Origin: an uncultured Chloroflexia bacterium
Lineage (GTDB): Bacteria; Chloroflexota; Limnocylindria; Limnocylindrales; CSP1-4
Assembly: GCA_963752475.1 (NCBI GenBank)
Contig: CAVVYR010000020.1
Location: 1 to 31,884, forward strand
DNA length: 31,884 nt
Reading direction: 5' to 3'
The notes below the pieces were generated by a model. That model was given only the letters and a program-made list of their open reading frames with translations, was not told where the DNA came from and searched no databases. This document shows, piece by piece, positions 8,524-27,298 of this stretch (positions are counted from its first letter, which is position 1; the number at the start of each line of letters is the position of its first letter). The translations under genes and the position numbers were made by a program.

Positions 8524-8584
8524 GCCTTCCCTCCCAGCCAGTGCCATTACGTCGTCCCAGCCAGCATAGGCGAACGACGCGCGC

Positions 8585-10042: not shown

Positions 10043-10759
10043 ATGAGGATCCTCTGCTACGTCAACCACTATTACGGTGAGCCCATCGCCTTCAGCGGGC
10101 GATCGACCGATAGTGACGCCGAGGGCCGGCACCGTGCGGTCAGCGCGTGTCTCGAGGGCCTTCGCCGGATCGAAGGTGCCGAGGTCCAGGTCTGCGGCAT
10201 CAGCGGACGATCGCTCGAGCCGGTTGACATCGACTTCCCCGGGCTGCGAAGCACCCCCAGCCTGCTCGTCTATGAGTCACTCGCGCACATGGCCGGACGC
10301 ATCCACGAGGGCTTCGACTACTTCATCAACATCGAGGACGACATCCTACTCCCAGCGGAGACGCTCGCGAACACGGTGGAGTTCGACCGCGAGAGCCTGC
10401 CCAACGAGGTCTTCCTGCCCAACCGCCTGGAGTACGACGAGGCCGGACAGCCGTACTGTCTCGATTGGCGAGCCATGCCGGGCTGGACGAACCAGCGACG
10501 ACGCTTCCGCGGCCGCGAGATCCGCGTGGCCCACAACCCGCACTCGGGTGTGCTCATCCTCTCGCCCGGGAAGTTCCGCTACGCGCTCAGGCATCTCGAC
10601 GCTGGCCACCGTGGTCGTTCCATCGGCGCCGAGATGGCCTCCGCCTACGCCTACTACCACAGCCCGTTCTGCCTCTATCGCTCCTACGACGACCTGTCCT
10701 TCCATAACGTGTTCCACCTGGACCAGTGGGCCGGCCCCAGGTCACCGTCGGTGGCATGA
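10043..10759 (+). CDS. Uncharacterised protein with GT-A-like EDD motif
   Basis: FDYFINIEDDILL, FLPNRLEY, NPHSG.LILS; strong GC3 codon bias; ATGA overlap with the next gene. Confidence 0.7.
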   Translation: MRILCYVNHYYGEPIAFSGRSTDSDAEGRHRAVSACLEGLRRIEGAEVQVCGISGRSLEPVDIDFPGLRSTPSLLVYESLAHMAGRIHEGFDYFINIEDDILLPAETLANTVEFDRESLPNEVFLPNRLEYDEAGQPYCLDWRAMPGWTNQRRRFRGREIRVAHNPHSGVLILSPGKFRYALRHLDAGHRGRSIGAEMASAYAYYHSPFCLYRSYDDLSFHNVFHLDQWAGPRSPSVA

Positions 10760-12612
10760 ACGTCTTCGTCCTGACCGCCGGCCGGACCGGGTCGACGACG
10801 TTCGCCCGGGCCTGCGAGCACATCACCAACTACACCGCCGGACACGAGACGCGCTGGGACGTGCTCGGTCCCGAGCGACTGACCTATCCGGACGACCACA
10901 TCGAGGTCGACAACCGCCTCAGCTGGCTCCTGGGCCGGCTCGATGCGGCCTACGGCGACGACGCCATGTACGTGCGCCTCGTGCGGAACGAGGCCGACGC
11001 CGCGGCCAGCCACGCCATGAGGATCGAACACGGAATCATGCGGGCCTACCGGGAAGCGATCATCTGGCAGGTCCCTGAGCACGTCGACCCGCACGATGTC
11101 GCGACCGACTACCTGGCCACCGTCGAGAGCAACATCGCGCTGTTCCTGCGGGACAAGCACCACGTCCTTCGCTTCCGTCTCGAAGAGGCGGCAACGGACT
11201 TCGAGCGCTTCTGGCGCTTCATCGGCGCCGAGGGTGACTACGAGGCTGCGGTCCGCGAGTTCGGGGTGCGCCACAACGCCTCCACGCGGGCCACCTCGGC
11301 GGCGGACACGCCACGGGTGTCGAAGGTGAACGCCAGCGAGCTGGCGACCAGGCCGGTCATCGAGGTGCCGGAGCCTGACCGCACGGACACCTCGCTCGAG
11401 TTCGCCTGCCTGATGCGCGAGCTTGCCCCGTGGGCGGACGGAGCGCCGGGTGGACCCGTCGTCGAGCGCCCGATCCGGTTCGGCTTCCGGACCCCGAACG
11501 CCCGGGTGCAGCATCACGAAGTCTGGGATGGTTTCTACCCGCTGTACTTCCTGACGCGCAATGGCGGACCCCTCTTCAACTCAGCCTACGATCAGGCACG
11601 CATCCGGTTCGGATTCCCGTTCCCCCGGCTCGTGCGCGACTACTTCGTCCAGCGGGCCGCTGACTTCGGGATCGACATCGAGGTCGAGGCGGAGCTGACC
11701 GAAGTGCGCCTCGACCGGCCGACGACGGGGCACGTGCTCGCCTTCGGGGGCGGCAAGGATAGCCGGCTCGTCCTGGGGACACTGCGCGAACTCGGGATCG
11801 AGCCGACGCTGGTCACGGCCCAGGATGGCCTCGTCGTCCCACCGCCGGGAGCTCTCGTCGTGGAGACGATCGACGGTGCCCTGGCCGATCGCCTCATGCC
11901 CGCCATCATGCAGCTCGGTCGCTTCCTGTACGTCGGGAACGGCCTGGGCGAGGTCCACCGGCGAGATCCGTGGCAGCAGTACTTCGACACGGGCGCGCTC
12001 GTGGCGCGCACGCAGCTCCGACAGCTGCTCGCGCAGCTGGGAGTGGACATGGAGATCGTCGCGCCCGTCTCGGTCCTGCCCCACAACATCATCCAGCGGA
12101 TCCTGCATGACCGCTACCCGGAGCTCTACGCCGGACAGACGAGCACGCACCCAACCGACCGCAACGACAAGAACCTGCGCGTCGCCCTCCTGCGGCTGTA
12201 TCACGGCCTCCCCCACTTGGACGCCATCGAGCCGGGTCTGTTCCCCCAGCTGTTGCGCGAGTTCGTCGCGCGACAGCTGGCCATGCCGCACGAGCACGGC
12301 TACCGCAACGGCAACGAGACCGTCGAGCTCGAGATGCGATCAATCATCTGGCGCACGCGCCACCACCCGGACCTGGCGGATGTCAGCGACGACATCCCCG
12401 CGAGGTGGGAGGGCCCGTGGATCGACTATGTCCATGACTACGTCGACCCGCAGCTCGACCGACGGTTCCTGGACCTCTATCGCCGATTCGCCCCATTGGC
12501 CAGCGAAGCTGATTTCAAGCGTACCGATCCGCCGGATCACCACGTAGCGAACCGCCATGAGCCGATCGGTGGAGGCCCGACCGGTCGATCGAGGCCACGG
12601 AGGCACGCCTGA
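10756..12612 (+). CDS. Two-domain protein: N-terminal sulfotransferase-like P-loop domain and C-terminal PP-loop (adenine nucleotide alpha-hydrolase-like) domain
   Basis: MNVFVLTAGRTGSTTF at the N-terminus (ATG 10756 overlaps the upstream stop); low-complexity linker after RHNAS; HVLAFGGGKDS with GGGKDS at 11746-11763. Confidence 0.75.
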   Translation: MNVFVLTAGRTGSTTFARACEHITNYTAGHETRWDVLGPERLTYPDDHIEVDNRLSWLLGRLDAAYGDDAMYVRLVRNEADAAASHAMRIEHGIMRAYREAIIWQVPEHVDPHDVATDYLATVESNIALFLRDKHHVLRFRLEEAATDFERFWRFIGAEGDYEAAVREFGVRHNASTRATSAADTPRVSKVNASELATRPVIEVPEPDRTDTSLEFACLMRELAPWADGAPGGPVVERPIRFGFRTPNARVQHHEVWDGFYPLYFLTRNGGPLFNSAYDQARIRFGFPFPRLVRDYFVQRAADFGIDIEVEAELTEVRLDRPTTGHVLAFGGGKDSRLVLGTLRELGIEPTLVTAQDGLVVPPPGALVVETIDGALADRLMPAIMQLGRFLYVGNGLGEVHRRDPWQQYFDTGALVARTQLRQLLAQLGVDMEIVAPVSVLPHNIIQRILHDRYPELYAGQTSTHPTDRNDKNLRVALLRLYHGLPHLDAIEPGLFPQLLREFVARQLAMPHEHGYRNGNETVELEMRSIIWRTRHHPDLADVSDDIPARWEGPWIDYVHDYVDPQLDRRFLDLYRRFAPLASEADFKRTDPPDHHVANRHEPIGGGPTGRSRPRRHA

Positions 12613-13684: not shown

Positions 13685-15022
13685 ATGCCTCGCAGCCTTG
13701 ACCTCCGACCAGCGACACTGCTGACGAGCGTCGTTGTCATCGCACTCATCGGGGCCGGGTTCATGCTCGCACTCGAGACCGCTGGCTCGCCTCAGTGTTG
13801 TGACGCCAGCGCATACGCGGCAGCGGCGCATAGCTTCCTCGACGGTGAGCCTAGCCTCAACCCGGCACACAACTATGGATACCCCGCATTCCTTGCGCTC
13901 CTCGACCTCATCGGACTCGACACTCCACGCAGGATCGCCTTCGCGCAGACGTCGTTGCTGTACCTCACCGTGCTCATCACGGCCTATGTCATCGCCCGCT
14001 GCACGAGCTCGGCGTTTGCTGTCGCTGTTGCCTGGCTCGCAGCTGTCACGCTGGTGCCAGCCGCGGCCTGGGGCGGCTTGATCTTCAGCGAGAGCCTAGC
14101 CGTACCGATGCTGCTGTTGGTCCTGGCGTTCGGCATCGCGACAGTGTTCCACTTGCTTCGCGATGCGCCGACCTGGGGCCTGGCAGTGGGTCTGGCCGTT
14201 GGTCTGGGCCTCACCAGCGGCTTCGTCTGGATGGTCCGACCAGGCCTGATCTGGATACCGATCGGAGTGGGCTTGGGAGTGCTGGCCTTGAGCGCCGGCC
14301 TCCTCTGGCGACGCGAGCGTCTCGGCTTGCTCGTGCCGGTGGCATTCGCCGTTTCGGCCATGCTGACGGTCGTACCCCAGCTTCAGCTAGGGGACCCACT
14401 CAAACTCGAGCTCGCCGAACTCCAGCGGGACGCGGGCCCCCAGGTGTTCCGCTATGCCACCGACCTGAGAAGCGAAGCACCGGCCGGGATGATCTTCTCA
14501 CCCCTGCCTGTGGGATCGGGTGCCGACCCGACAGTGGCCGAGCGCACGTCGGGCAGTCGCTCATGGCGCCTGACGGCGATGGCGGCCCACGTTGTGACCG
14601 GCTGGGACGCCCGGCCTTCGCCCAATTATGTCTACAAGCGGACCGGTAATCGCTGGATCGTCGCGACTGCGTTCTCGGGCTTCCTCATCGCTGGCGCGCT
14701 GGCCGCGGCCTGGCTCGTATGGGAGCGCCGCCGACGGTGGCTCGAGCCCGAGACTGCAGCGCCTGCCGCCCTGGTCGTGATGTTTGCGGCGAGCCAAGGG
14801 GTGATGTCCATGACCTCGGCGGAGTTCCGCTTCAACATCGTCGGCTGGCTGGTCGCCGCCTGCTGTCTGGCGATGCTCAGCGCCCTGGGATGGTGGACGC
14901 GTCGCCGAGCAGCAGCCTACATCGCCCTCGCCCTCGGCTTCAGCGCAGCCGTCCTGCTGGTGGGCCACATGACCCTGCTCTACTCGGAGCGGTGGCTCGA
15001 ATACGTGAACCTCCTCGGCTAG
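13685..15022 (+). CDS. Polytopic membrane protein, GT-C-like glycosyltransferase (paralogue 2)
   Basis: Shares PQCCDA..Y, HNY.Y.AFLALL, PAAAW.G...SE.LAVP, WM.RP.L.WIP, FRY.TD, TGWDARPSP.Y, TAFSGF and EFR.N..GWLVAA with 4253-5593. Convergent with the GtrA gene. Confidence 0.72.
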   Translation: MPRSLDLRPATLLTSVVVIALIGAGFMLALETAGSPQCCDASAYAAAAHSFLDGEPSLNPAHNYGYPAFLALLDLIGLDTPRRIAFAQTSLLYLTVLITAYVIARCTSSAFAVAVAWLAAVTLVPAAAWGGLIFSESLAVPMLLLVLAFGIATVFHLLRDAPTWGLAVGLAVGLGLTSGFVWMVRPGLIWIPIGVGLGVLALSAGLLWRRERLGLLVPVAFAVSAMLTVVPQLQLGDPLKLELAELQRDAGPQVFRYATDLRSEAPAGMIFSPLPVGSGADPTVAERTSGSRSWRLTAMAAHVVTGWDARPSPNYVYKRTGNRWIVATAFSGFLIAGALAAAWLVWERRRRWLEPETAAPAALVVMFAASQGVMSMTSAEFRFNIVGWLVAACCLAMLSALGWWTRRRAAAYIALALGFSAAVLLVGHMTLLYSERWLEYVNLLG

Positions 15023-15047
15023 GATGCACCCCCGGCAGGGGACGGCG

Positions 15048-15452
15048 TCAGCGCTCGGAGTCGGCCGTCGGCTGCTGCCCCGAGAACAACAGGCGCGCCA
15101 ATAGGTACGTGAGCGGGATGGTCACGGCGATGGCGGCGAGCGAGGCGAGCGCCTCTGGCAGGCCGAGGACATCGACCCAGGCCGTCACGACCGCCAGGCC
15201 GACCCCGTACTGCACGACGTAGATGAGCGGGAACAAGGCAAGCGTACGCACGCTGGTCGTGGCCCGGAAGACGAAGGTGCTGTTGAGCACATAGGAGATG
15301 CCGATGCCGACGACGAAGACCACGCTGTAGGCCAGGGCGTAGGGCAGGATCTGCAGCAGCAGCAGGTAGAGGCCGAGCGTGATGAACGTGGTAGTCGCGC
15401 CGGCGATGAGGAAGCGGACGCCGGACCCGGTCAGGCGCGGGCCCCGGCTCAC
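15048..15452 (-). CDS. GtrA-family lipid-carrier-sugar flippase
   Basis: 134 aa, 4 TM; VRFLIAG..TT, SYVLN..FVF; GTG start overlaps the upstream stop. Confidence 0.9.
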   Translation of the reverse strand: MSRGPRLTGSGVRFLIAGATTTFITLGLYLLLLQILPYALAYSVVFVVGIGISYVLNSTFVFRATTSVRTLALFPLIYVVQYGVGLAVVTAWVDVLGLPEALASLAAIAVTIPLTYLLARLLFSGQQPTADSER

Positions 15453-16213
15453 CGGTCGCGCGCCTGCTGGACGAGCGAGACGAACTCCCCGTAGTCACGG
15501 ATGTAGTCAGCCGGATCGTAGGGATCGCTCGCCAGCACCAGCAGGACCGCGTCCGATGAGCACTTGTACTGGATCCCCCAGGTCATCGCCGGCAGATGCA
15601 GCCCGTATGACGGGCTGTCCAGCACGAACTCCTGTCGCATCTCACCGTCGTCGGCGACCACAGCCAGCTGGCCCTGCGCCGCCACTAGCAGCTGCTGGCA
15701 CTGGCGGTGGGCGTGAGCACCGCGGGTCTCGGTGGAGGGCACGTCGTAGACCAAGAAGAAACGGGCGGGCTGGAACGGGATATCGGCTCCGGCCTCGGCG
15801 GCCGAGAGGCTGCCGCGGATGTCAGCCACGGTCCGGAAGTGGTGGAAGGTCACGCCGCGCACGAGCGACTCACGCATGTGTGAATCGCCGGGGCGGACCA
15901 CCGGCGAGGCCTCCTCGGCGTGGCTGTCGAGGTAGCCGACGATGCGTGCCGGATTGCCCTCGACAAGGGCGAGCGGCGGGACCGAGGTGGTGACCACGGA
16001 GCCGGGGCCCACGTGTGACCGATGGCCGATCTCGGTACCCGGCAGGATCGTGGCGTTGGCACCGATGACGCAACCCGAATGCAGCGTCGTCTGAGCCTCG
16101 GCGTCGTCCGGTGTCGCGAGGACGGCGGCGTTGGGGCCGATGGAGACGTCTGCCTCGATGATCACGCCATCGGCGACATAGGCACCGGGCAGGAGGGTGG
16201 GGTCAGCGGCCAT
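15449..16213 (-). CDS. wxcM: WxcM-like protein: shortened hexapeptide-repeat acyltransferase domain fused to FdtA/QdtA-type 3,4-ketoisomerase cupin
   Basis: IGANATILPG.EIG....VG.GSVVT..VP....V.GNPARIVGY, then DIRGSLS, IPF.P.RFFLVYDVPS.E.RG.HAH..C.Q, ADDG, W..QY...SDAVLLVLAS.PYD..DYIRDY. Confidence 0.85.
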   Translation of the reverse strand: MAADPTLLPGAYVADGVIIEADVSIGPNAAVLATPDDAEAQTTLHSGCVIGANATILPGTEIGHRSHVGPGSVVTTSVPPLALVEGNPARIVGYLDSHAEEASPVVRPGDSHMRESLVRGVTFHHFRTVADIRGSLSAAEAGADIPFQPARFFLVYDVPSTETRGAHAHRQCQQLLVAAQGQLAVVADDGEMRQEFVLDSPSYGLHLPAMTWGIQYKCSSDAVLLVLASDPYDPADYIRDYGEFVSLVQQARDR

Positions 16214-16215
16214 GG

Positions 16216-17235
16216 CTAGGGTTCAATGCCGTCTTGCGGCTCGTCGTTGTGGCCAGGCGCGACTTCGTCGGTCGGTCCCTCGACGTGGGCACGGACACCG
16301 GTGGGTCCGGACTCGTGATCGACCTGTTGCCAGATGACATGGAGCGGGCGCTGTTTGGTGTTCTCATAGGCTCGCCACGCATACGAGCCCACGATACCCA
16401 ATCCCACCAGATTGGTCGCGCCGACGAAGACGATGAGGACGGCCAGCGCCGTGAAGCCCTGGACCTCGGCGAGGCCCAGGAGCCGGACCACGGCCGCGAG
16501 CAGCCCGAAGGCACCGAACGCGAGTGCGAGAAGGCCACCGACCCGGGTCAGCAAGCGGACCGGCAGGTCGGTCACGGAGAAGACGCTGTCGGTGAGGTAG
16601 TCCATCTTCTTGCCAAAGGTCCAGGCCGAGCGACCATGGACTCGTTCGCGCCGCTCATATGTCACGTAGGCCCGGCGGAAGCCCAGCCAGAACACCTGTG
16701 CCACTAGCGAACTATGGTGCTCCTCGAGCGCCAGTAGCTGCTGGCGGAATGCCTGGTTGCAGGCGAAGACGTCGACGCCACCAGCCGGCATGTCTCGCAC
16801 GATCAACCGCCGGTAGATGCCCCAGAAGATCTGCGCCGGCAGCCGCGTGCTGGCAGGGTCCTGCCGTCCCTCGCGCACGCCAAGCACGACATCGGCAGCA
16901 TCGTCGCGGAGGATCTCGTCCATCTCCAAGATGAGCTCGGGCGGCTCCTGCAGATCGGCTGCCATGATCGCGAACCGGTCCCCAGTGGCGAGCTGTAGCC
17001 CGGCCCGCGCAGCCGGGAAGGCACCGAAGTTGCGCGACAGCACGGCCAGGCGAGAGCGCACGGGCCACGTCGGCAGTGCCTCCTGGAGCACCTCATAGGA
17101 GCGGTCGGGACTGCCGTCGACGACGAATACCGCCTCGAGCTCATCCGGCACCGCCTCGGCCATCCCCTGCACTGCCTCGAGCAAGTCGGGGATGGACTCC
17201 TCGTTGCGGTAGACGGGGATGATCAGCGAAAGCAT
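16216..17235 (-). CDS. GtrB-like undecaprenyl-phosphate glycosyltransferase (GT2, two C-terminal TM helices)
   Basis: LSLIIPVYRNE, VVDGSPDRS, LSRNFG, MAADLQEPPELI, R..G.S.WT, two TM helices, G.YAWR.YENTK.RP. Confidence 0.92.
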   Translation of the reverse strand: MLSLIIPVYRNEESIPDLLEAVQGMAEAVPDELEAVFVVDGSPDRSYEVLQEALPTWPVRSRLAVLSRNFGAFPAARAGLQLATGDRFAIMAADLQEPPELILEMDEILRDDAADVVLGVREGRQDPASTRLPAQIFWGIYRRLIVRDMPAGGVDVFACNQAFRQQLLALEEHHSSLVAQVFWLGFRRAYVTYERRERVHGRSAWTFGKKMDYLTDSVFSVTDLPVRLLTRVGGLLALAFGAFGLLAAVVRLLGLAEVQGFTALAVLIVFVGATNLVGLGIVGSYAWRAYENTKQRPLHVIWQQVDHESGPTGVRAHVEGPTDEVAPGHNDEPQDGIEP

Positions 17236-17237
17236 GG

Positions 17238-18374
17238 TCAGGTTCCCCCCTCGGTGAAGAACGTACCCACGACTTCGGTCACTCGTGCCTGCTCGTTGGG
17301 GCCGAGACCCGGATAGCAGGGCAACGACACGACGCTAGCGCAGGCTGCCTCGGTCACCGGCAGCTTCTTGGTGCGGCCGTGCTCGACGTACGCGGGCTGG
17401 AGGTGATCGGGGATCGGGTAGTGGACATCGCTGCCGATGCCGTTCGCAGCGAGGTGAGTCCTGAAGCGCTCGCGTTCGGAGATACGCGCGACGAACAGGT
17501 GAGCTACGTCCTCCTCGCCACGCACCGGAGTCAGCAGGATAGGCAAGCCCGAAAGGTCGCGGCGATAGGCATGTGCCACGAGGCGGCGCATCTCGTTCCA
17601 CTCGTCGAGGTGAGGCAGCCGATCGTTGAGGACGGCGGCCTGGATCTCATCCATGCGGCTATTCCGGCCGGCGGGCAAGTCCACGCGGTACTTGGCCTCC
17701 CAGCCATACTGCCGCAGCGATCGCACCCGATCCGCCAGCTCGGAATCGTCGGTCACGATGGCTCCGCCGTCGCCGGCCGCACCCAGGTTCTTGGTGGGGT
17801 AGAAGCTGAAGCAGCCGATAGCGGCGAAGCTCCCGGCGCGAGCGCCGCCATGCGTGGCGCCGTGGGCCTGAGCGCAATCCTCGATCACTGGGACGTCGGA
17901 GCGAGCAGCTTCGGCCAGGATGGCCTCGGTGTTGGCCAACTGCCCATATAGGTGCGTCACGATGATCGCCGCGGGCCGGTCCGCTCCCGTGCGGCCAGCG
18001 AGGGCCGCGGACAACGCGACCGGAGACATGTTCATGGAGGCTTCGTCGATCTCGACGTACTCCGGGATGGCCCCGACGGCGCGGACAGCGGTGCTGCCGT
18101 AGTGGCCGGCGTTGGCCACGACGAGGACATGGTCATCGGGACCGACCTCGAGGCTCCGCAGCGCGATCTCCAGGGCGTCTGTCCCGTTCGCGACGGCGAC
18201 ACACCGCTCGACGCCGCAGTACTCGGCAAAGGCCTCCTCGAAGCGTGCGACCTCTGCCCCCAGGACGTAGCGGCCCGACCGCACGACGCGGTCGATGGCT
18301 GCCCTGACATCGACCGCCCCCTCGATGGCGTCCAGGGAGACGAACGGGACGTGCTCCGCTGCCTCGGCGCTCAT
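17238..18374 (-). CDS. DegT/DnrJ/EryC1/StrS PLP aminotransferase (FdtB/QdtB-like)
   Basis: VANGTDALE, THLYGQ, IEDCAQAHGA, SFYPTKNLGA.GDGGA, NSRMDEIQAA, HYPIPDH.QPAY. Confidence 0.95.
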   Translation of the reverse strand: MSAEAAEHVPFVSLDAIEGAVDVRAAIDRVVRSGRYVLGAEVARFEEAFAEYCGVERCVAVANGTDALEIALRSLEVGPDDHVLVVANAGHYGSTAVRAVGAIPEYVEIDEASMNMSPVALSAALAGRTGADRPAAIIVTHLYGQLANTEAILAEAARSDVPVIEDCAQAHGATHGGARAGSFAAIGCFSFYPTKNLGAAGDGGAIVTDDSELADRVRSLRQYGWEAKYRVDLPAGRNSRMDEIQAAVLNDRLPHLDEWNEMRRLVAHAYRRDLSGLPILLTPVRGEEDVAHLFVARISERERFRTHLAANGIGSDVHYPIPDHLQPAYVEHGRTKKLPVTEAACASVVSLPCYPGLGPNEQARVTEVVGTFFTEGGT

Positions 18375-19708
18375 GCTTCGCGCTTCTTCTTCAGCCGAGC
18401 GGAGTAGAAGTCGCTCTCATCGGCGAGGACCACCTTGGTCGGCAGCATGTACGCGGCCAGTTGGTCCGCGCAGGCGTGGCGGATACGCTTCTTGAGGGAG
18501 GCTACCGACTCAGGCTCGACCGACGCGACCTTGGCCACCACGACCTGACCCAGGAGGGGATGCGACTCGCCGTAGACGGCGACGTCCTTGATGTTGGGGA
18601 GTTGGAGGATGGCCTGCTCGACCTCCGCCGGGTACACCTTCTGCCCCGCGACGTTGATGAGGTCGCTGTCACGGCCGAGGATGCGCAGCCAGTCGCCGTC
18701 GACCTCCACCAGGTCTTCCGTGTTGAACCATCCGCCCGCATCAAACGGGCTCGGCGCGTTCAGGTAGCCGACCATGGCGTAGTCCGACTTGATCCAAAGC
18801 ACACCGTCCACGACCTTGGTCTGGAAGCCCTCGCCGCCGACCTTGACCCAGAGCGAGCCGTCCTCGCGGGACTTGGAGCGCAGCACCCCCAGTTCCGACA
18901 GGCCGTAGGTCTGCTGAAGCAGGACGCCTGGGAAGGCCCGGCCCACGCGGTCGAGCGTCTCTTGGGGCATGACCTCCGTGCCGTAGGTGATGCGCTTGAG
19001 CGAACTGAGATCGTACTGTTCGACGGCGCCGGAGCGGATCAGCATGTTGAGGAACGACGGGGTGGTCGGGAGGATCTCGACGCGGTGCTGCTGGATGGCC
19101 GAGCAGATGGCCACGACCGATCGGTCGGGGACCGTGACCACCGTGCCCAGCCCGCTCAGGATGGCCAGGATGGTGTTGACGCCGCCGAAGTGGTCGAGCA
19201 TGAGGAAGGCGATAGCCACGCGGCTAGGGCCCTGCTTGCGGAACTTCTCGGCGACCAGCCGCATGTCGTGGAGGATGGCCTTGGGCGTCCCGGTCGACCC
19301 CGACGAGAAGAGGATCATGCCGGCATCGCGGCTCGATCGAAGACCGGCCACGAGCTCGTTCGTCGAGGTCCTATCCGTGCTCGAGAATGCCGGTTCACCA
19401 CTGGTGTAGTCGATGACCCACTGCGCCTCCGCCAGGTCGATGACGGTGTCGAGGTCGACGATGGCCTCCTGCGTGAACGGCACCACGATGCAGCTTGAAC
19501 GCATCAGCGCAAAGAGCAGGCACACGACCTCCGGCGAGTAGTCGCCCATGACCACCACGACGTCGCCGTCGGCCACGCCGTTCTCGCGCAACTGCTCACC
19601 GTACTGCTCGGTCAGCCTGTTCAGCTGCCTGTACGAGAACGCCCGCCCCTTGTCGATGAAGGCATTCCCATCGGGGGCGGTCTCGAAGCGTTCGAAGAGG
19701 AACTCCAT
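18371..19708 (-). CDS. AMP-dependent acyl ligase (ANL superfamily)
   Basis: LFSSGSTGTPK, YGLSE, WFNTEDL, GR.SDLINVAGQKVYPAEVE; RBS GAGGT. Confidence 0.93.
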   Translation of the reverse strand: MEFLFERFETAPDGNAFIDKGRAFSYRQLNRLTEQYGEQLRENGVADGDVVVVMGDYSPEVVCLLFALMRSSCIVVPFTQEAIVDLDTVIDLAEAQWVIDYTSGEPAFSSTDRTSTNELVAGLRSSRDAGMILFSSGSTGTPKAILHDMRLVAEKFRKQGPSRVAIAFLMLDHFGGVNTILAILSGLGTVVTVPDRSVVAICSAIQQHRVEILPTTPSFLNMLIRSGAVEQYDLSSLKRITYGTEVMPQETLDRVGRAFPGVLLQQTYGLSELGVLRSKSREDGSLWVKVGGEGFQTKVVDGVLWIKSDYAMVGYLNAPSPFDAGGWFNTEDLVEVDGDWLRILGRDSDLINVAGQKVYPAEVEQAILQLPNIKDVAVYGESHPLLGQVVVAKVASVEPESVASLKKRIRHACADQLAAYMLPTKVVLADESDFYSARLKKKREA

Positions 19709-19731
19709 GGCGCTACCTCACTTGCCGGACG

Positions 19732-20745
19732 TCACGTCCGAAGGATGCCGGTGGCCCAGGACATCCCGACGCCGAAACCACTGACGAGCACGAGCCCTCC
19801 CGGCTGCAGACAGCCCTGGTCCGTCGCGTCCTTGAGGGCGATGGGAATCGAGGCGGACACCGTGTTGCCGATGTCGCGGATGTTGGTGAACGCCTTCTCG
19901 GATGGGATCCCGAGTGACCGATTCAGCGCGTCCAGCGTGACCTTGCTCGCCTGGTGCATCACGACCAGGTCGATGTCATCGATGGTCAGGTCGTTACGTT
20001 CGAGCACCTCCCGGATCTGCGGCGGCACCCTGGCCTCGACGAACGCGAGGATGCCGGAGCCGTCCATGTAGATGTTGTCCTGTGACCGGACGCTGCCACC
20101 CAGATCGGCCCTGGGCTCGGCCGTCTCCGCCGATCGTGGCAGCCTGCAGCCTCCAGCCGGAACGATGAACATCTGGTGGTCCTTCCCGGCCGTGGCGCAC
20201 TGCACGTCGACGAGACCTCGGTCCGACTCCGAGACCGAGATCCACGTGGCCGCGGCCCCGTCACCGAAGAGGGTGCGGGCGGCCCGATCCCGTGGATGGA
20301 TGTACTTCGAGTAGGTATCGGCCGTGACGAGCAGGATGTCGCGGGCGATGCCGCCGGCGATGAGCGACTGTGCCAGCGCGAGGCCGTACACGAAGCCGGA
20401 GCAGGCGAGGTTGAAGTCGAGGGCGAAGACGTCGTCATCGAGCCCCAGGTGGCCATGCAGGAGCGTCGAGTCGGGTGGGAGCAGGTAGTCCCCGCTTTGA
20501 GTGCAGAACAGGATGGCGCCGATGCGCTCGCGCGCCTCAGGATGCTCGGCCAGCAGGCGGTCGCAGGCGTCGCGGGCCAGGTCGTAGGCGGTCTCGTCCG
20601 GCCGGGCGATGTGTCGCGACTCCACGCCCGTCCGCGTGACCACGCGCCGCATGTCCCAAGTCGGGTTCTCGTCGACCAGCATCTCGTTCGTGACGACCTG
20701 GTCGGGCAAGGCGTAGGCGATGGCTTGGATCTCAGCGTGCAGCAC
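19732..20745 (-). CDS. 3-oxoacyl-ACP synthase III (FabH-like)
   Basis: Cys-His-Asn triad in LACSGF, HQAS and GNTVSASIP; also LFGDGAAA and GFGVGMSW. Confidence 0.93.
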   Translation of the reverse strand: MLHAEIQAIAYALPDQVVTNEMLVDENPTWDMRRVVTRTGVESRHIARPDETAYDLARDACDRLLAEHPEARERIGAILFCTQSGDYLLPPDSTLLHGHLGLDDDVFALDFNLACSGFVYGLALAQSLIAGGIARDILLVTADTYSKYIHPRDRAARTLFGDGAAATWISVSESDRGLVDVQCATAGKDHQMFIVPAGGCRLPRSAETAEPRADLGGSVRSQDNIYMDGSGILAFVEARVPPQIREVLERNDLTIDDIDLVVMHQASKVTLDALNRSLGIPSEKAFTNIRDIGNTVSASIPIALKDATDQGCLQPGGLVLVSGFGVGMSWATGILRT

Positions 20746-21419
20746 TAGCTTGCGGCTCCGGAAGTTGCGGGCAGGCCGAGCAGTTCGCGAAGGGGCTCGT
20801 TGGCACGCTGGATCTCCCCGAAGACGGCCGGCCTCCCGTGGCCGGGATGGACCTCAGTGTCCGCCGGGAGCAACTCCCACAGCCGCTGCAATGAGGTCCT
20901 CAGTCCATCGCTGTCGGACTCCGGCATCGACCCGAGGAAGATGCCTTGTCGGTACAGGGTATCGCCCGTGAAGGCGTGTCCGTCGATCATCAGCACGACG
21001 CTGCCGGGCGTATGCCCAGGAACGTGCAGGACCTGCACCGTGATCTCACCCTCGGACAAGGACATGCCTTCGTCCAGGGTCACGGTCTCCGACGGTGCCT
21101 CTATACGCCAGGGCATCTTGAGAGCCATCATGGTGAAGTTGCTCGCGCGTGCCACGCGGCGGTCGGCGTCATGCAGGTACACGTCCACCTCGTACCGCTG
21201 GCGCAGGTGCTCCACCGACCCCACGTGGTCGAAGTGACCGTGGGTGCAAATGATGACCCGTGGCCTGAGTCCTGATCGCCCCAGAGCCGCTTCGATGGAC
21301 TCGCGATCGAGGCCCGGATCGATGAGGAGACAGCCACCCGAACCAGTGGGAACGATGTAGGTATTGGCCTGGACTTCGCGGTTCACCACCCGGATGATCT
21401 CCGGCCCGACCGCGCTCAT
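20745..21419 (-). CDS. Metallo-beta-lactamase-fold hydrolase (glyoxalase II-like)
   Basis: NTYIV, LIDPG, THGHFDH, PGHTPGS, FTGDTL, PGHG. Confidence 0.93.
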   Translation of the reverse strand: MSAVGPEIIRVVNREVQANTYIVPTGSGGCLLIDPGLDRESIEAALGRSGLRPRVIICTHGHFDHVGSVEHLRQRYEVDVYLHDADRRVARASNFTMMALKMPWRIEAPSETVTLDEGMSLSEGEITVQVLHVPGHTPGSVVLMIDGHAFTGDTLYRQGIFLGSMPESDSDGLRTSLQRLWELLPADTEVHPGHGRPAVFGEIQRANEPLRELLGLPATSGAAS

Positions 21420-22132
21420 CGATGGATGCCGCCAAGGAAGACGGTCTGACCGGTGACGTAGCCGCTGGCGGGCGAGGCGAAGAAGTCGATGACGTTGATG
21501 ACGTCCTCGGGCGTCGCAAGGCGGGAGATGGGCAGGCTGGCCAGCAGGTTCTCGACGGTCTCCGGCGGGAGCTGTTCGAGCATGTCAGTCTCGAGCGCGG
21601 TCACGCCAACGGCATTGACCGTGACGCCGTAACCCGCGAATTCCTTGGCCAGGACGGACGTCAGCGTCGAGGTGGCCGACTTCGTCGCGGCGTAGATCGC
21701 CTCGCCCACGGGTGAGAGGACTGAAGCGATCGAGCCGATGTTGATGATGCGTCCCATCGGGCGCTTGCGCATCAGTTTGGCCGCTTCGCGGGACACATAG
21801 AAGCCACCGAGCAGGTTCGTGCGCACCATCTCCTCGGCTTGCGAAGACGGGGTTAGCATGGCGTGTCGGACGGCTACGACCGCAGCGTTGTTGACGGCGA
21901 TGTCTACGGCTCCGTGTGACCGCGCGAGCTGCTGGAAGACCGCGCGGACGGCCGAGTCGTCTCCGATGTCGGCTTGGTGATGCTCGTAGGCCGCGTGTGC
22001 GATGCTGCTTGGGCCTCGACTGATGCCGACCACCGAGGCGCCCTCGACCAGGAAGTGCTCGGCGAGGATACGGCCCAGGCCCTTGCGCGTCCCAGTGATG
22101 ACGGCGACGTGGTCTCGGTAGCGCAGCGTCAC
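21416..22132 (-). CDS. SDR ketoreductase (FabG-like)
   Basis: ITGTRKGLG, NNAA, GRIINIGS, YAATK, TGQTVFLGG. Confidence 0.92.
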   Translation of the reverse strand: MTLRYRDHVAVITGTRKGLGRILAEHFLVEGASVVGISRGPSSIAHAAYEHHQADIGDDSAVRAVFQQLARSHGAVDIAVNNAAVVAVRHAMLTPSSQAEEMVRTNLLGGFYVSREAAKLMRKRPMGRIINIGSIASVLSPVGEAIYAATKSATSTLTSVLAKEFAGYGVTVNAVGVTALETDMLEQLPPETVENLLASLPISRLATPEDVINVIDFFASPASGYVTGQTVFLGGIHR

Positions 22133-22428
22133 TTCTCCGCGGCGAGCTCGAGGATGTAGTCGCGCAGGGTCGTGACCGTCGAGTACGGAGACACCGGGCG
22201 GGACATGGCTCGATCGTCAGCAAGGCTGATACCCAGCTCGTTCTCGACATTCATGGTCGTTTCGACGTCCGTGATCAGCGAGACGAACTCGAGCGAGTCG
22301 AGTGCCGCGTCCATCCCGAACAAGGTCGTCTCGGTGGAAATGGCGACCTGATCGTCGGGCTCTCGCTCCGAGTTGATGGCTTCCAGAGCTCGGAAGATGG
22401 CGGCGTCGATGGAGTCGGCAGTGATCAT
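22129..22428 (-). CDS. Acyl carrier protein
   Basis: 99 aa, acidic, LFG....LDSLEFVSLI phosphopantetheine-Ser motif; RBS AGAAAGGA; TGATG overlap with the upstream stop. Confidence 0.88.
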   Translation of the reverse strand: MITADSIDAAIFRALEAINSEREPDDQVAISTETTLFGMDAALDSLEFVSLITDVETTMNVENELGISLADDRAMSRPVSPYSTVTTLRDYILELAAEK

Positions 22429-23033
22429 CAGGTCCTTTCTGCGGGTGGTGTCGAGTTGATGAGGGCGTTCATGCGCGGCAGGGCGGTCTCGCGGAACTCT
22501 TGCTCCATCATGCCGACGCACACGATGTCGTGGAAGCGGTCGCCGATGAATTGGTGCTCGCGCAACCGGCCCTCCTCCTTCATGCCCAGGTAGAGGTGCC
22601 ACTTCAGCATCTGGTGGTTCTCGGCCACAACCGCACCGTGCAGCCGATGGAGCCCTAGGCGGTCGAAGGCCAGCTCATAGAGCAGCTTCAGCGCCTCGAC
22701 AGCGGCCGGCACACCCTTCACGGAATCGGGCTCCCCGATGAGGAACCTCGCGGGTTCCGCTCGCTGCTGGACACGGTCGACGTTCACGAGAGAGAGCATC
22801 CCCACGGACTGACCGTCCTTCAGCTCGATGATGAAGTTGTACTCGGTGTCGGGCCGTGCGCCGATCCAGGCGGCTTGCTCGGCCACGGTCGTGGCTCCAC
22901 GGTTGAGCAGCTCGGCGCGGTCACCCAGCCGCCATCCCAGTGTCGTCCCCGCATCCGCGGCTCGAAGCGGGCGCAACAGGACGTGCTCACCCGTCAGCTC
23001 GATATCCTCGATTGTCTGCACCACATCGCTCAC
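22428..23033 (-). CDS. GNAT N-acyltransferase (RimJ/PseH-like)
   Basis: VLLRPL...D, FIIE...GQ.VG, AFDRLGLHRL...V..EN, GMKEEGRLREH; GTG 23033 with GAGGG upstream. Confidence 0.88.
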   Translation of the reverse strand: MSDVVQTIEDIELTGEHVLLRPLRAADAGTTLGWRLGDRAELLNRGATTVAEQAAWIGARPDTEYNFIIELKDGQSVGMLSLVNVDRVQQRAEPARFLIGEPDSVKGVPAAVEALKLLYELAFDRLGLHRLHGAVVAENHQMLKWHLYLGMKEEGRLREHQFIGDRFHDIVCVGMMEQEFRETALPRMNALINSTPPAERT

Positions 23034-23086
23034 CCTGCGTCCCTCTGCTGCCGGTGGCCGCCCCGCTGGACCGCACCGATCCCTCC

Positions 23087-23112
23087 GTGACCGGGTCACC
23101 GGGTCCAGCATA
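23087..23112 (-). promoter_or_regulatory. Putative -10 (TATGCT) and operator-like palindrome for the 10-gene operon
   Basis: TATGCT at 23112-23107; GTGACC-G-GGTCAC at 23087-23099, just downstream of the predicted start site. Confidence 0.4.
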
Positions 23113-23145
23113 AAGCAGACCTCGGAGCCACCGGAATGCAAGGGC

Positions 23146-25317
23146 TCACGGTCCCTTGTGGGACTGTAGATCCAGCACTCGCTCCGGCGCGGAACCCACG
23201 TGCAGCGAGACAAAGAACGCTCTTGGGTCACCAGCGACGGCACAGCCAGGCGAGGTCACCTCGATCTCGACAGTGGCCTCGCCAGCTTCATCTAGCTCGA
23301 CCGGGACCGCGACAGACTGGCGCCCCCCATCGACCGAGGCCAGCTCCCCGTTCGCCAGCAGGCTCGCAGGCCCACACGGTGAAGGGCCGAACTCGAGCTC
23401 GACGTGGCTGCTGCCGGCGGGCAGGCCCGAGACGGCCACGACCGCCAAATCCTCGACCTGCCACCAGAACGGGTCCGTCGGAGTCCCTTCGGATCCGCTG
23501 AAGCCGCCGAGCGGGGTGACCACCGGGATTTGCGCCTCGTCGAGCCACTCGAAGTAGATCCAACGCTCCCTCGCGCTGGCCAGGTCCGGCACGCCCAGGA
23601 CGCTTGTATAGCGCTGCAGGTCGGCGGGGACCTCGAAGGAGGTCGTGTCCACGACGACGCCGCAGAAGCCCGCCTGTCGGCCGGCCTCGGCCAGCCTCTC
23701 GATGTCGTCGCGCATGTCGAGGCCCCACGTGCCCTCCGCCGTCCCCTTCATGCCACCATAGCTCCAGCGCAGGTCGTCGCTGACGAGGTAGGGGATCATC
23801 AGGGAGTAGGCCCAGAGCCCGTTGATCGAGCCGGCCTCCGGGAACTCCAGCAGCGGGAGCTGCAGGATCGGGCAGCCCTCAGGCAGCTCCGCCTCGAGCT
23901 CGTTCACGAAAGGCCTAACCTCGCGATCGAGAGCGTCGCTGTCGCCATAGTTCGCGAACCCGAGCGTGAGCGTCTCAAAGGCCAGGACTAGCGCCGCTAC
24001 AGCGGCAAGTCCGTTGCGGAGCCAACGCCGCCGCCGCAGCAGCTCGGTGGCGAGGATGCCCGCGGCCGCGGCCGCGAGGATAGCGATGAACACCGAGAAG
24101 CGACCCCAGGCCCTGATCTCGGGCGTCACGAGGTAGGCGAAGAGCACCCCGCCGCCAACGGACGCGAACATGATGAGGACCACAAGCAGGAGGCCCTGCA
24201 GGTAGCCGATCCGGCGCTGAGCACGAAGCCAGCTGCTGAGCCAGCCACCGGCAGCGGCAGGCCGGAAGAGTGCCACGACCAGCACCACGACCACGAGGAA
24301 GAGGGCGGCGATGATGACCACATTGAAGGCTGCGGTGCCCTCGTCGTAGACAAGCAGCCGGTTGAACTCTGGCCGCAGCTTGGTCAGGGCCGTGGCGAAC
24401 ATCGACCTCGTGTCCGGCAGGAACAGCGATGCCACCGTCCCGCCGTAGAGGGTCGAGTCGTGCGCGGTCCGATGCCAGCCGGTACCGTACGTGTGCTGGG
24501 CGGCGCTGTTCAGCACCACCGTCACTCCCATCACAGCCGGGACCGCGACCGCGATGACCACGCTGGGCCACCTGATGGGTCGTGCTCGCCAGGAGAGCAG
24601 CCGACGGACGAGCACGACGGCCATCAGGAGCGAGGTCATGAAGGCGTAGTAGATGCCACCGAGACCGGCCAACAGCACGAGCGCCAGCCCGCCGACCAGC
24701 CGCAGCGGACGCCCGCGGTCGAAGTAGCCTCGCCAAACGGCGACGACCAGGCCGACGCCGACGATCGCAGGAGCGTAGCTGGCGAGGAAGAGGTGACCGA
24801 CCGCGCGGGCGAAGTGCCACGGCAGCAACGCCAACGCGGCCGCAAGTACGATGGCACCGAAGCGATAGACACCCAGCAGGCGCAGCAACAGGTAGGCGCT
24901 GAGCCCGATCTGGAAGAAGCCGACGATGATGTACGAGTTGATCGCGGTCACAGCGTCGCCGAACACTCGGGCCAGAGGCACGAGATGCGCCCAGTGATAG
25001 GTGTCGGTCAGGATCGGGACCTGCATGATGTCCTGGAACCCCGGGTAGCCGAGGTTCGGGTTGCGCGTAAGGTCGCCGCCTTCGAGCGTGCCCTTCAGGA
25101 ACCCGGTCAGAGGTGTGAGGTCACCACCCGCACCCAGGAGCACATCGAGATCGGCTGGATTCAGGCGATAGACGACCACGGCCACCGCGACGCAGAGCAG
25201 TCCGACGAGAGCGCCGATGACTGACTCATGCATCCAGTCCCGGGTCGCCCATGGGGCCCGCTCGCTGGGGCTCACGTAGGCATTGCTCCCAGGCTCCCTG
25301 ACCGGACCCTCCGTCAA
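23146..25317 (-). CDS. Large polytopic membrane protein, probable GT-C-fold glycosyltransferase with C-terminal extracytoplasmic domain; start uncertain
   Basis: GGD after TM1, NPNLGYPG, LPWHFAR..GHLFLASY, GIYYAF, EIRAWGRFS, ILQLP...FPE, LRWSYG.MKG; many TM segments. TTG 25317 overlaps the rmd stop (TTGA). Confidence 0.72.
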   Translation of the reverse strand: MTEGPVREPGSNAYVSPSERAPWATRDWMHESVIGALVGLLCVAVAVVVYRLNPADLDVLLGAGGDLTPLTGFLKGTLEGGDLTRNPNLGYPGFQDIMQVPILTDTYHWAHLVPLARVFGDAVTAINSYIIVGFFQIGLSAYLLLRLLGVYRFGAIVLAAALALLPWHFARAVGHLFLASYAPAIVGVGLVVAVWRGYFDRGRPLRLVGGLALVLLAGLGGIYYAFMTSLLMAVVLVRRLLSWRARPIRWPSVVIAVAVPAVMGVTVVLNSAAQHTYGTGWHRTAHDSTLYGGTVASLFLPDTRSMFATALTKLRPEFNRLLVYDEGTAAFNVVIIAALFLVVVVLVVALFRPAAAGGWLSSWLRAQRRIGYLQGLLLVVLIMFASVGGGVLFAYLVTPEIRAWGRFSVFIAILAAAAAGILATELLRRRRWLRNGLAAVAALVLAFETLTLGFANYGDSDALDREVRPFVNELEAELPEGCPILQLPLLEFPEAGSINGLWAYSLMIPYLVSDDLRWSYGGMKGTAEGTWGLDMRDDIERLAEAGRQAGFCGVVVDTTSFEVPADLQRYTSVLGVPDLASARERWIYFEWLDEAQIPVVTPLGGFSGSEGTPTDPFWWQVEDLAVVAVSGLPAGSSHVELEFGPSPCGPASLLANGELASVDGGRQSVAVPVELDEAGEATVEIEVTSPGCAVAGDPRAFFVSLHVGSAPERVLDLQSHKGP

Positions 25318-26221
25318 GCCTTGGTCACCTCCTGCAGCACGTCGGACAGGGTCGTCTCGAACGGAATCGCTGGCGACCAACCCACCCAATCGTGCAGGCG
25401 CTGCGCGTCACCCACGATCAGCTCAGGATCGCTGGCTCGCAGCAGCGACGGGTCCAGGTCGAACTCGACCGGCCAGTCGACCGACCGGCTGAAGTGGTCG
25501 ATGATGTCGCGCACCTTGACCGGGTGACCGGTGGCCACGTTGAAGACCGGCGGCTGGGGGATCTCTTCATCAGCGGCCGCGTGCTCCAGCATCAGGCGAT
25601 AGGCCCGTACGGTGTCCCGCACGTCACCGATATCCCGGGCCACGTCCACGTTCCCGACACGGATCGAGTCGCGGCCATCCCTCTTGGCGGCCGCGATCCG
25701 CCCGGCCATGGCCGGGACCACGAAGTCGTGACGCTGCCCTGGCCCGGTGTGGTTGAAGGACCGGGCCACGACGGCCCGCAGCCCCTGCATCGCACCCCAC
25801 AGTGTTACGCCTTCGGCCCCCAGCTTGGAGTGCCCGTAGACGTTGCGCGGCCCCAGCCGGCTGGACTCGGTCAGGGGCTGGCCACACTCGGGGTGGGCGT
25901 AGACATCAGCTGAACCGACGACCAGCAGCGCGGGACGCGGCTCGAGCATGCGGCCAGCCTCGACGACCGAGAGTGTCCCTCCGACGTTCGTGCGCAGGGC
26001 CAGCCCGGGATCCTCCTCCGCGTCGGGCGCGAACGCGACACCCGCCAAGTGCGCGACGCCGTCAGGCAGCTCACTGCGCAACAGCGCCTCGACCGCCTTG
26101 GCGTCGGCGACATCAAGCTGATCGATCGGCGGAGCCGGGATCGGCACATGACCGGCCTGCTCAAGCTCCTTCAAGAGCCAGCGCCCGACGAAGCCATCGG
26201 CGCCGGTCACAAGGATGCGCA

Positions 26222-26222
<1 letters not shown>
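25314..26222 (-). CDS. rmd: GDP-4-keto-6-deoxy-D-mannose reductase (Rmd-like; GDP-D-rhamnose or its 4-epimer)
   Basis: MRILVTGADGFVG, HLAG, VGSADVY, YGHSK, RSFNHTGPGQ, VGN.D..RD..DVRD.V.AY; TGATG-coupled to gmd. Confidence 0.8.

Positions 26223-27298
<1,076 letters not shown>

Follow-up and report, generated by a model that had tools for sequence, protein, structure and literature searches.

A candidate operon for side-branch glycosylation with an N-acylated aminosugar in an uncultured Chloroflexia bacterium

The stretch analysed here (the window) is the entire 31.9-kb contig CAVVYR010000020.1 (31,884 nucleotides, nt) from an uncultured Chloroflexia bacterium, and the system in question is a block of ten co-oriented genes at 15048-23033, together with a co-oriented gene upstream and a convergent gene downstream. 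With a little better than even confidence, the block is taken to be a side-branch glycosylation operon of three modules that puts an N-acyl aminosugar on a cell-envelope glycan. The reading draws on gene order, gene junctions, the families and folds of the products, and the co-conservation of the acyl genes with the FdtA isomerase and DegT aminotransferase genes. Each part of the block has a known precedent and only the combination is unusual. A preliminary description of this DNA had listed ten co-oriented genes with their families and junctions, which open reading frames (ORFs), Pfam and NCBIfam bear out, the call of the acyl carrier protein (ACP) being weak.

Gene block and its sugar and acyl enzymes

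The genes are listed below in the direction of transcription of the block, with lengths in amino acids (aa) and the E values of the Pfam matches, and are followed by the two flanking membrane-protein genes.

22428-23033, minus strand: GNAT, 201 aa (Acetyltransf_3, 7.3e-13)
22129-22428, minus strand: ACP-like protein, 99 aa (candidate divergent ACP, invariant DSL serine)
21416-22132, minus strand: short-chain dehydrogenase/reductase (SDR), FabG-type ketoreductase, 238 aa (adh_short_C2, 1.8e-40)
20745-21419, minus strand: metallo-beta-lactamase-fold (MBL) hydrolase, glyoxalase-II-like, 224 aa (Lactamase_B, 1.5e-27)
19732-20745, minus strand: beta-ketoacyl-ACP synthase III (KAS III), FabH-type, 337 aa (ACP_syn_III and ACP_syn_III_C, 1.4e-28)
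18371-19708, minus strand: ANL (adenylate-forming) ligase, 445 aa (AMP-binding, 3.5e-40)
17238-18374, minus strand: DegT-family pyridoxal-phosphate aminotransferase, predicted C3 type (FdtB/QdtB/DesV-like), 378 aa (DegT_DnrJ_EryC1, 1.4e-99)
16216-17235, minus strand: GtrB/ArnC-type family 2 glycosyltransferase (GT2) with C-terminal membrane helices, 339 aa (Pfam GT2, 7.7e-20)
15449-16213, minus strand: fusion of a left-handed beta-helix (LbH) domain with FdtA, WxcM-like, 254 aa (FdtA PF05523, 2.6e-49; Hexapep, 1.4e-15)
15048-15452, minus strand: GtrA-family small membrane protein, presumed flippase partner, 134 aa (PF04138, GtrA_DPMS_TM, 2e-19)
23146-25389, minus strand: membrane protein of predicted GT-C fold with a C-terminal CBM35-like beta-sandwich, 747 aa
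13676-15022, plus strand: convergent multi-helix membrane protein, putative GT-C, 448 aa (paralogue at 4256-5593, minus strand)

Neighbouring frames overlap by 1 nt at the GNAT/ACP and MBL/KAS junctions and by 4 nt at the ACP/SDR, SDR/MBL, ligase/DegT and LbH-FdtA/GtrA junctions, 2-nt gaps separate DegT from GT2 and GT2 from LbH-FdtA, and the lone 23-nt gap lies between KAS and ligase. The Pfam assignment is strong for nine of the ten genes and weak only for the ACP. The G+C content at third codon positions is 0.73-0.90 in the frames of the block, a coding-like bias, the 99-aa ACP frame being too short for the script, and since most of 160 related loci keep the acyl genes in synteny, the gene block is far beyond chance. 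It extends upstream to the co-oriented 747-aa gene, 112 nt from the GNAT gene. The 112-nt spacer between them (23034-23145, minus strand) has a short inverted repeat rich in GC, and a Shine-Dalgarno-like element, GAGGGA, stands 8 nt before the GTG start.

The best solved relative of the LbH+FdtA fusion is the 312-residue WxcM-like protein 4mzu (1.9e-66), and its FdtA domain, in which the RGAHAH motif aligns with the template, scores higher with FdtA (2pa7, 2.1e-29) than with QdtA (1.7e-19). By sequence, a cupin 3,4-ketoisomerase of the FdtA family, as employed in the FdtA/FdtB (QdtA/QdtB) pathway, is present. For the LbH half, the NeuD/PglB/VioB model gives 1e-13; the first residue of the 4mzu chain to be aligned is residue 53, which leaves the domain about 50 N-terminal residues short, and the frame cannot extend, as it measures 258 codons from stop to stop. 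A cassette-linked homologue of the fusion in another locus (L076) has 316 aa against 254 here and is about 60 residues longer. A full-length N-terminal LbH acetyltransferase domain of the WxcM/FdtD type is not present in the window fusion, and the shortened LbH half may therefore not be catalytic. The gene earlier labelled "WxcM-like" is thus corrected to a fusion with a shortened LbH half.

The DegT aminotransferase is best matched in PDB by 2oga (5.9e-81), which we take to be the C3 aminotransferase DesV, and by QdtB (3frk, 1.9e-73), both ahead of perosamine synthases and ArnB, and the C4 aminotransferases reach just 1e-43 to 1e-34. By this similarity, the enzyme would act at C3. Neither RmlA nor RmlB is encoded within the window; another contig of the same genome (C1) carries a dTDP-glucose 4,6-dehydratase (RmlB) gene at 408 bits, above the cut-off, and an RmlA-like gene at 215 bits, below the cut-off of 360.

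The 99-aa ACP-like protein has no Pfam match at E <= 0.001, PP-binding being reached only at E 0.074, and it scores E 0.008-0.009 with the NCBIfam ACP models. Its best PDB matches are ACPs at non-significant values (E 0.07 with the sequence alone, 0.03 with a profile of 21 rows), and its alignment by hhalign with the AcpP of the same genome gives E 0.0059 and a probability of only 6%, with the DSL serine in register. The D-S-L residues are kept in 21 of the 21 aligned homologues, and the constant position of the gene within the cassette was counted in favour of the ACP call. KAS III scores 254.9 bits with NF006829, which exceeds the cut-off of 249, and its translation contains ACSG, HQAS and GNT motifs, which are consistent with a Cys-His-Asn triad. 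The SDR matches FabG models at 3.7e-47, below their cut-offs, and its translation shows the TGxxxGxG and YxxxK motifs. The MBL hydrolase matches GloB (3.8e-24) and SolJ (1.1e-22), each below cut-off, and in PDB it is related to 2zwr (1.8e-31) and hydroxyacylglutathione hydrolases; with an HGHFDH motif in its translation, it is a probable thioester hydrolase. The GNAT matches the PseH model at 2.4e-9, below the model cut-off, and in PDB SpeG (4.8e-11), AAC(6') (3.5e-8) and, over residues 27-153, FdhC (5kta; E 4.4e-4, 23.1 bits), the spermidine acetyltransferases scoring higher than FdhC. In sequence it resembles amine and nucleotide-sugar N-acyltransferases, and the dTDP-3-amino sugar is the proposed substrate of its N-acyl transfer.

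Homologues of the ligase number more than 100, with 59-88% identity and a length of about 445 aa, and its best family matches are acyl-CoA ligases. Co-folding of the ligase with the ACP-like protein gave a median of 0.46 over three runs against 0.00 for the best control, with at least 90% contact agreement among the runs, a partner pLDDT of at least 85 and a pLDDT of 85-86 for the ACP-like protein itself. In calibration, 58 of 80 solved complexes and 2 of 110 mismatched pairs came up to the mark, but just 7 of those 80, and both mismatches, did so with scores of 0.60 or below, so that the result is rated as weak support. As solved adenylation-carrier complexes exist, the pass may also reflect mere likeness. 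The model is consistent with a ligase that probably charges the ACP, a step that had been put forward in the preliminary description and that gains some, though weak, support here.

Delivery genes and candidate transferases

The GT2 matches PgfS (1.2e-40) and ArnC (1.3e-38) over its full length, below the equivalog cut-offs, and in PDB the Synechocystis GtrB sll0501 (3.7e-40) and ArnC (4.4e-34), over residues 2-301/317. The small membrane protein scores 70.4 bits against a cut-off of 26.1 for PF04138, and the earlier assignment of the two genes as GtrB-like GT2 and GtrA is confirmed by these matches.

The 747-aa protein was settled as GT-C by fold search, since sequence searches came up empty. 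It has no Pfam match, Pfam searches on 31 members of its family returned stray domains of unknown function in one or two members each, and the family profile found nothing below E 0.66 among PDB sequences. Its AlphaFold2 model has a mean pLDDT of 86.9 and a pTM of 0.83, and all 22 of its 22 Foldseek matches at E <= 0.001 are GT-C enzymes (AglB, STT3, AftD, EmbA/B/C, DPY19 and PglB; best 3.1e-6), with ArnT also among the top matches. Structural alignment by VIA-align gave Z 20.2 to Pmt4 (root-mean-square deviation, rmsd, 4.3 A over 370 aligned residues), 18.8 to STT3, 17.5 to AftA/AftD and 14.8 to ArnT, while residues 618-734 align with CBM35 at Z 8.3 (rmsd 3.1 A, 104 aligned). D90, in the loop after the first transmembrane helix, is nearly invariant, and 4014 representatives match the protein at E <= 0.001. 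On the modelled fold, the protein is a candidate extracytoplasmic transferase.

The preliminary description had assigned the GT-C role to the convergent 448-aa protein and had missed the better documented 747-aa protein upstream. This assignment finds little in its favour, as the 448-aa protein has no Pfam match even at E <= 5, its profile gives one chance-level match (E 0.12) among PDB sequences, and its AlphaFold2 model, built from a four-row alignment, is unusable (pLDDT 39.2). Its language-model look-alikes include RgtA/B/C/D-like and PMT_2 clusters, among others, and hhalign places 141 N-terminal columns against the 747-aa family with a probability of 25.6% and E 7.5e-4. A paralogue of 47% identity and 446 aa, also multi-helix and of no Pfam family, is encoded at 4256-5593 (minus strand); the counterpart frame of the convergent protein was also taken as 13685-15019, with 445 aa. 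The 448-aa protein is possible but unproven as a GT-C candidate. The 747-aa protein and the two paralogous membrane proteins make three GT-C candidates for one GT2/GtrA pair. All parts of a three-component system, namely a GT2, a GtrA-family protein and a GT-C-fold transferase (the 747-aa protein), are encoded.

Distribution of the acyl cassette and the host genome

Related loci were collected from species-representative genomes, where 354 candidate stretches were found, 331 of them with a ligase relative and the best 80 taken (L001-L080), and from metagenomes, where 80 (L089-L168) were taken from 222 stretches, 170 of which have a ligase relative. The window proteins were compared with all 160 loci by tblastn (E <= 1e-4, at least 40% query coverage). 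Contig ends cut many of the 160 loci short, which lowers the all-locus counts, and counts are therefore also given for the 73 full-flank loci, which have at least 7 kb upstream and at least 5 kb downstream of the ligase.

GNAT: 99 of 160 loci; 67 of 73 full-flank loci
ACP: 108 of 160; 70 of 73
SDR: 128 of 160; 71 of 73
MBL: 118 of 160; 69 of 73
KAS: 125 of 160; 71 of 73
FdtA: 99 of 160; 53 of 73
DegT: 94 of 160; 53 of 73
LbH: 6 of 160; 3 of 73
GT2: 6 of 160; 3 of 73
GtrA: 2 of 160; 1 of 73
747-aa protein: 1 of 160; 1 of 73
448-aa protein: 0 of 160; 0 of 73

The hosts of L001-L080 belong to Chloroflexota, Binatia, Acidobacteriota, Actinomycetota (Modestobacter, Blastococcus and a Mycobacterium), Alpha- and Betaproteobacteria, and others. 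The six acyl genes are complete in 65 of the 73 full-flank loci, and 47 of these 65 also have FdtA and DegT, usually in the order GNAT-ACP-SDR-MBL-KAS-(...)-ligase-FdtA-DegT; in many loci, the ligase directly adjoins FdtA and DegT. The ligase is the best-conserved gene of the cassette, with 54-72% identity across phyla against 26-63% for KAS, and the GNAT is the sole acyltransferase-type gene that travels with the cassette (67 of 73, against 3 of 73 for LbH). Judged from these sequence comparisons, the tie of the acyl genes to those for the 3-amino sugar, which the preliminary description had expected, is robust.

The 71 full-flank loci with a KAS match were sorted into two variants. The short variant, to which the window type belongs, comprises 12 loci in which KAS has at least 40% identity and mostly adjoins the ligase; the long variant comprises 59 loci in which KAS has less than 40% identity and stands upstream of the ligase at a distance of about 4 kb. 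In a long-variant locus of Caulobacter sp. Root655 (L051), the stretch between MBL and ligase (3766-7770) encodes a distant KAS III, a 398-aa fusion of a MaoC dehydratase with an SDR, and a 597-aa protein without Pfam match, which implies a longer or dehydrated acyl chain. The cassette of this locus is flanked by an RTX-repeat protein (78-1229) and by a protein of tetratricopeptide repeats and GT41 (9401-11140), and the sugar may therefore go onto protein there. In a Mycobacterium locus (L079, 9412-17301), a long-variant cassette stands beside a sulfotransferase gene, two GT2 genes, an ABC-2 transporter and MmpL genes, and neither FdtA nor DegT was found within this 17-kb locus.

The cassette and the Gtr genes were found together in separate lineages (L023, L095 and L003/L101/L103). 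In Polaromonas (L023), the layout is the same as in the window and comprises a 747-aa-family relative of 25% identity, GNAT, ACP, SDR, MBL, KAS, ligase, FdtA, DegT, GT2 and GtrA. GT2 and GtrA stand beside DegT and FdtA in L095, GT2 follows DegT in L003, L101 and L103, and PMT_2-family GT-C genes flank the block in L101. A 138-aa ORF after the GT2 gene of L101 was considered as a substitute for GtrA and rejected, as its translation is rich in Arg, not of membrane type and without a Pfam match. Homologues of both membrane proteins and close ligase homologues occur on contigs of equal size (17,602 and 57,848 bases), which suggests that they share those contigs. The co-conservation proposed earlier is thus borne out for the acyl genes with FdtA and DegT but generally not for the Gtr genes, although their coupling recurs in a few unrelated lineages, and the proposed co-occurrence of the cassette with the convergent 448-aa protein was seen in none of the 160 loci.

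The assembly of the host is 88.8% complete and 5.8% contaminated. Mis-binning of the contig was considered and is not supported, as its GC content (0.671) and tetranucleotide correlation (0.992) are as in similar-sized contigs. Neither lpxC nor WhiB was found in this 88.8%-complete genome, and on account of lpxC the acceptor is probably not lipopolysaccharide (LPS). At E <= 1e-60, the ligase was found in 0 of 24 same-genus and 0 of 16 same-order genomes, and it occurs in 14 of the 301 sampled genomes of the phylum (own included) with merely 48-52% identity. Given this patchy occurrence within the phylum, the block looks like an acquired, variable surface-glycan module.

The remainder of the contig holds further GT2 and GT4 genes and genes of FkbM-type methyltransferases. 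A Gmd-type GDP-mannose 4,6-dehydratase is encoded at 26222-27298 (minus strand; 1.4e-129), and beside it, at 25314-26444 (minus strand), an NDP-sugar epimerase/reductase (GDP_Man_Dehyd 1.3e-39, RmlD_sub_bind 3e-16), which together suggest a GDP-6-deoxyhexose as backbone sugar; the Xanthomonas wxc cluster presumably likewise has a GDP-6-deoxyhexose backbone sugar. An integrase/transposase of the insertion-sequence type (5710-6792, plus strand; rve_3 4.5e-15, HTH_32) is inserted in the glycan locus. Two sulfotransferase-like genes (30152-30997 and 30892-31701, both minus strand; Gal-3-O_sulfotr 3.1e-12, Sulfotransfer_2 1e-4) hint at sulfation of the glycan; their stop-to-stop frames share about 100 nt. 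A small cupin at 555-1142 (plus strand), weakly matched by dTDP_sugar_isom (1e-7) and FdtA (1.1e-4), may be a second sugar isomerase or epimerase, and a co-oriented run at 6824-7912, 7756-8667 and 8585-9991 (all minus strand) encodes a lyase/synthase of the dihydrodipicolinate synthase family, an SDR and a Methyltransf_24 protein.

Known systems, proposed pathway and alternatives

In region 3 of the wxc locus of Xanthomonas campestris, wxcK and wxcN mutants lose the Fuc3NAc branches on the rhamnan O-antigen (PMC4878081). The wxcK-N genes share with the window an aminotransferase, a WxcM-type LbH+FdtA fusion, a GT2 and a small GtrA-like protein, near GDP-sugar genes. Their composition is presumably the same as that of the window block, and the gene order and the identity of the GT2 as wxcL are likewise taken here as presumed. 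The Xanthomonas system differs in its N-acetylated sugar and in having no ACP/KAS III/ligase/MBL cassette and no GNAT, and it belongs to a bacterium with LPS, in contrast to the window host, whose 88.8%-complete genome yielded no lpxC.

The viosamine island of P. syringae comprises vioA, vioS, vioB, vioR and acp, the vioR mutant is without the modified sugar, and the dedicated ACP, KAS III and ketoreductase, which the window shares, there give a 3-hydroxybutanoyl group for a dTDP-aminosugar (PMC3927599). It differs in its 4-amino sugar, its LbH transferase VioB in place of a GNAT and its lack of an ANL ligase and MBL hydrolase, and a cytoplasmic transferase there adds the sugar to the flagellin glycan without a lipid carrier. 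FdhC and QdhC are 3-hydroxybutanoyltransferases, and the GNAT FdhC is reported to N-acylate dTDP-Fuc3N (PMC4869667). The FdtA/FdtB/FdhC clusters of E. coli O103, Salmonella O55 and Hafnia have in common with the window an FdtA-type isomerase and a C3 aminotransferase followed by a GNAT; these enteric clusters have no ACP cassette, and the window GNAT matches FdhC at just 4.4e-4. The wfpC-wfpG genes of Flavobacterium psychrophilum encode an ACP, two KAS, a ketoreductase and an acyltransferase predicted to add 3,5-dihydroxyhexanoyl to an aminosugar, and they differ in a UDP-linked 4-amino sugar, a PglD-type LbH transferase and the lack of a ligase, an MBL hydrolase and a Gtr system (PMC6519341).

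The three-component systems (GtrA/GtrB/GT-C; CsbB/GtcA/YfhO; ArnC/ArnE-F/ArnT) have three parts that are all encoded in the window. Their cargo includes glucose, N-acetylglucosamine, galactose, 4-amino-4-deoxyarabinose (Ara4N) and pentofuranoses, supplied via UDP or phosphoribosyl pyrophosphate routes. The cargo of the window system would differ from these as a dTDP-derived N-(hydroxyacyl) 3-amino-3,6-dideoxyhexose. In the papers that the literature searches reached, the six-gene composition with GNAT, ANL ligase and MBL hydrolase, the union of this cassette with GT2/GtrA/GT-C, and the 747-aa GT-C family were not found, and supplementary gene lists may hold more; in the published aminosugar pathways found by these searches, neither the ligase nor the MBL hydrolase of the cassette has an assigned role. 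A WxcM match in a Sphingomonas paper was an unrelated listing of an acetyltransferase. The high novelty seen in the preliminary description is weakened by wxcK-N as a precedent and by the published ACP/KAS III/ketoreductase cassettes that serve N-acyl aminosugars.

In the pathway that we infer, which extends to the substrates, the order of steps, ACP and not CoA as the donor, the roles of ligase and MBL hydrolase, the choice of GT-C enzyme and the acceptor, dTDP-4-keto-6-deoxyglucose would be supplied by enzymes whose genes lie in other parts of the genome. The FdtA domain would isomerise it to the 3-keto sugar, and DegT would aminate this to dTDP-3-amino-3,6-dideoxyhexose, for which the sequences allow either a galacto or a gluco product. 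On the dedicated ACP, KAS III may condense a malonyl unit with a short primer, and the FabG-type reductase would turn the product into a 3-hydroxyacyl thioester, in the simplest case 3-hydroxybutanoyl, because the short variant has neither a dehydratase nor an enoyl reductase. The ANL ligase would charge the ACP with an acid, the MBL hydrolase would clear wrong or stalled thioesters, and the GNAT would move the acyl group to the 3-amino group of the sugar at the nucleotide-sugar stage. The N-acyl sugar would then be loaded onto polyprenyl phosphate by the GT2, flipped with the assistance of GtrA and attached to the wall glycan outside the membrane by a GT-C-fold enzyme, most likely the 747-aa protein, alternatively the 448-aa protein or its paralogue.

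Several observations weigh against this pathway. The ACP identity of the 99-aa protein is putative and weak in score (E 0.0059-0.07), and direct transfer from ACP is unproven because the FdhC match is just 4.4e-4 and FdhC reportedly uses an acyl-CoA donor. The LbH domain of the fusion, of the VioB/PglD kind, could be the real N-acyltransferase, and the roles given to the ligase and MBL hydrolase are without precedent, as the P. syringae and Flavobacterium cassettes have neither gene. A dTDP-sugar as donor for a GtrB-type GT2 has genetic support alone, from Xanthomonas, and the Gmd of the window belongs to a GDP-sugar route. Coupling to Gtr genes is exceptional among relatives (GT2 in 6 and GtrA in 2 of the 160 loci, the 747-aa protein in 1 and the 448-aa protein in 0), and the GT2 and GtrA could therefore serve another sugar. 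Two unknown genes separate the 747-aa relative from the GNAT in Polaromonas, as a 112-nt gap separates the two in the window, and a promoter and terminator scan of 14500-26500 returned no promoter-like and one terminator-like site, no more than in shuffles.

The main alternative, conceivable though rather unlikely, is that the chain is built on the ACP, freed as an acid by the MBL hydrolase and made into acyl-CoA by the ligase, from which a GNAT acting like FdhC would acylate the sugar. All six conserved genes, complete in 65 of the 73 full-flank loci, would be employed, the glyoxalase-II-like hydrolase is of a thioester hydrolase type, the best family matches of the ligase are acyl-CoA ligases, and the GNAT resembles CoA-using acetyltransferases and, weakly, FdhC. 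The co-fold weakly supports docking of the ligase to the ACP instead, hydrolysis followed by re-activation wastes ATP, and we know of no relay of this kind, which counts against it. A smaller share of probability goes to the LbH domain as the sugar N-acyltransferase, as in VioB and FdtD, in which case the GNAT might, for instance, prime or load the ACP or acetylate a different group. The match to the NeuD/PglB/VioB model (1e-13) and that of the whole protein to 4mzu (1.9e-66) fit this, as does the use of LbH transferases by published ACP cassettes (PMC3927599, PMC6519341), but the domain is about 50 N-terminal residues short against 4mzu and about 60 against the L076 homologue, and LbH is present in 3 of 73 full-flank loci against 67 for GNAT.

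Equally improbable is a pair of unrelated modules, in which a cytoplasmic glycosyltransferase uses the N-acyl aminosugar and GT2/GtrA/GT-C add an ordinary sugar. GT2 and GtrA are missing from most cassette loci and the window has several other GT2 and GT4 genes, as would suit this arrangement; in the window, however, the GT2 and GtrA genes alternate with DegT and FdtA, the junctions being 2-nt gaps and a 4-nt overlap, this neighbourhood is found again in L023, L095 and L101/L103, and wxcK and wxcN mutants each lose the 3-amino sugar branch, polar effects being possible (PMC4878081). The ligase, as the best-conserved gene of the cassette (54-72%) and often a neighbour of FdtA and DegT, might itself form the amide by adenylating a free acid and coupling it directly to the aminosugar; this would leave the conserved GNAT without a role, the co-fold weakly supports ligase docking to the ACP, and the proposal is very improbable.

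The side-branch operon with ACP-based acylation is the favoured reading. Perhaps, with confidence that falls somewhat short of even, it would be the first GT2/GtrA/GT-C system to carry a dTDP-derived 3-amino-3,6-dideoxyhexose with a short 3-hydroxyacyl chain, made by a private ACP/KAS III/ketoreductase line in which a dedicated ANL ligase loads the ACP and a thioesterase of the MBL fold acts as its proofreader, in a bacterium in the genome of which no lpxC was found. In that case, the six-gene cassette would be an undescribed standard module, shared across phyla, for the N-acylation of aminosugars. Surface antigenicity and phage recognition are determined to a large extent by the N-acyl groups that rare aminosugars bear, and to our knowledge, the genes behind these groups are known in a few simple cases only. 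The 747-aa GT-C family has almost no Pfam coverage despite its 4014 representative relatives. If the reading is true, the delivery of an acylated dTDP-sugar via a polyprenyl-phosphate/GT-C side branch would extend the range of cargo known for systems of this type, and once the cassette is understood, N-acyl aminosugars would become predictable from genomes across many phyla.

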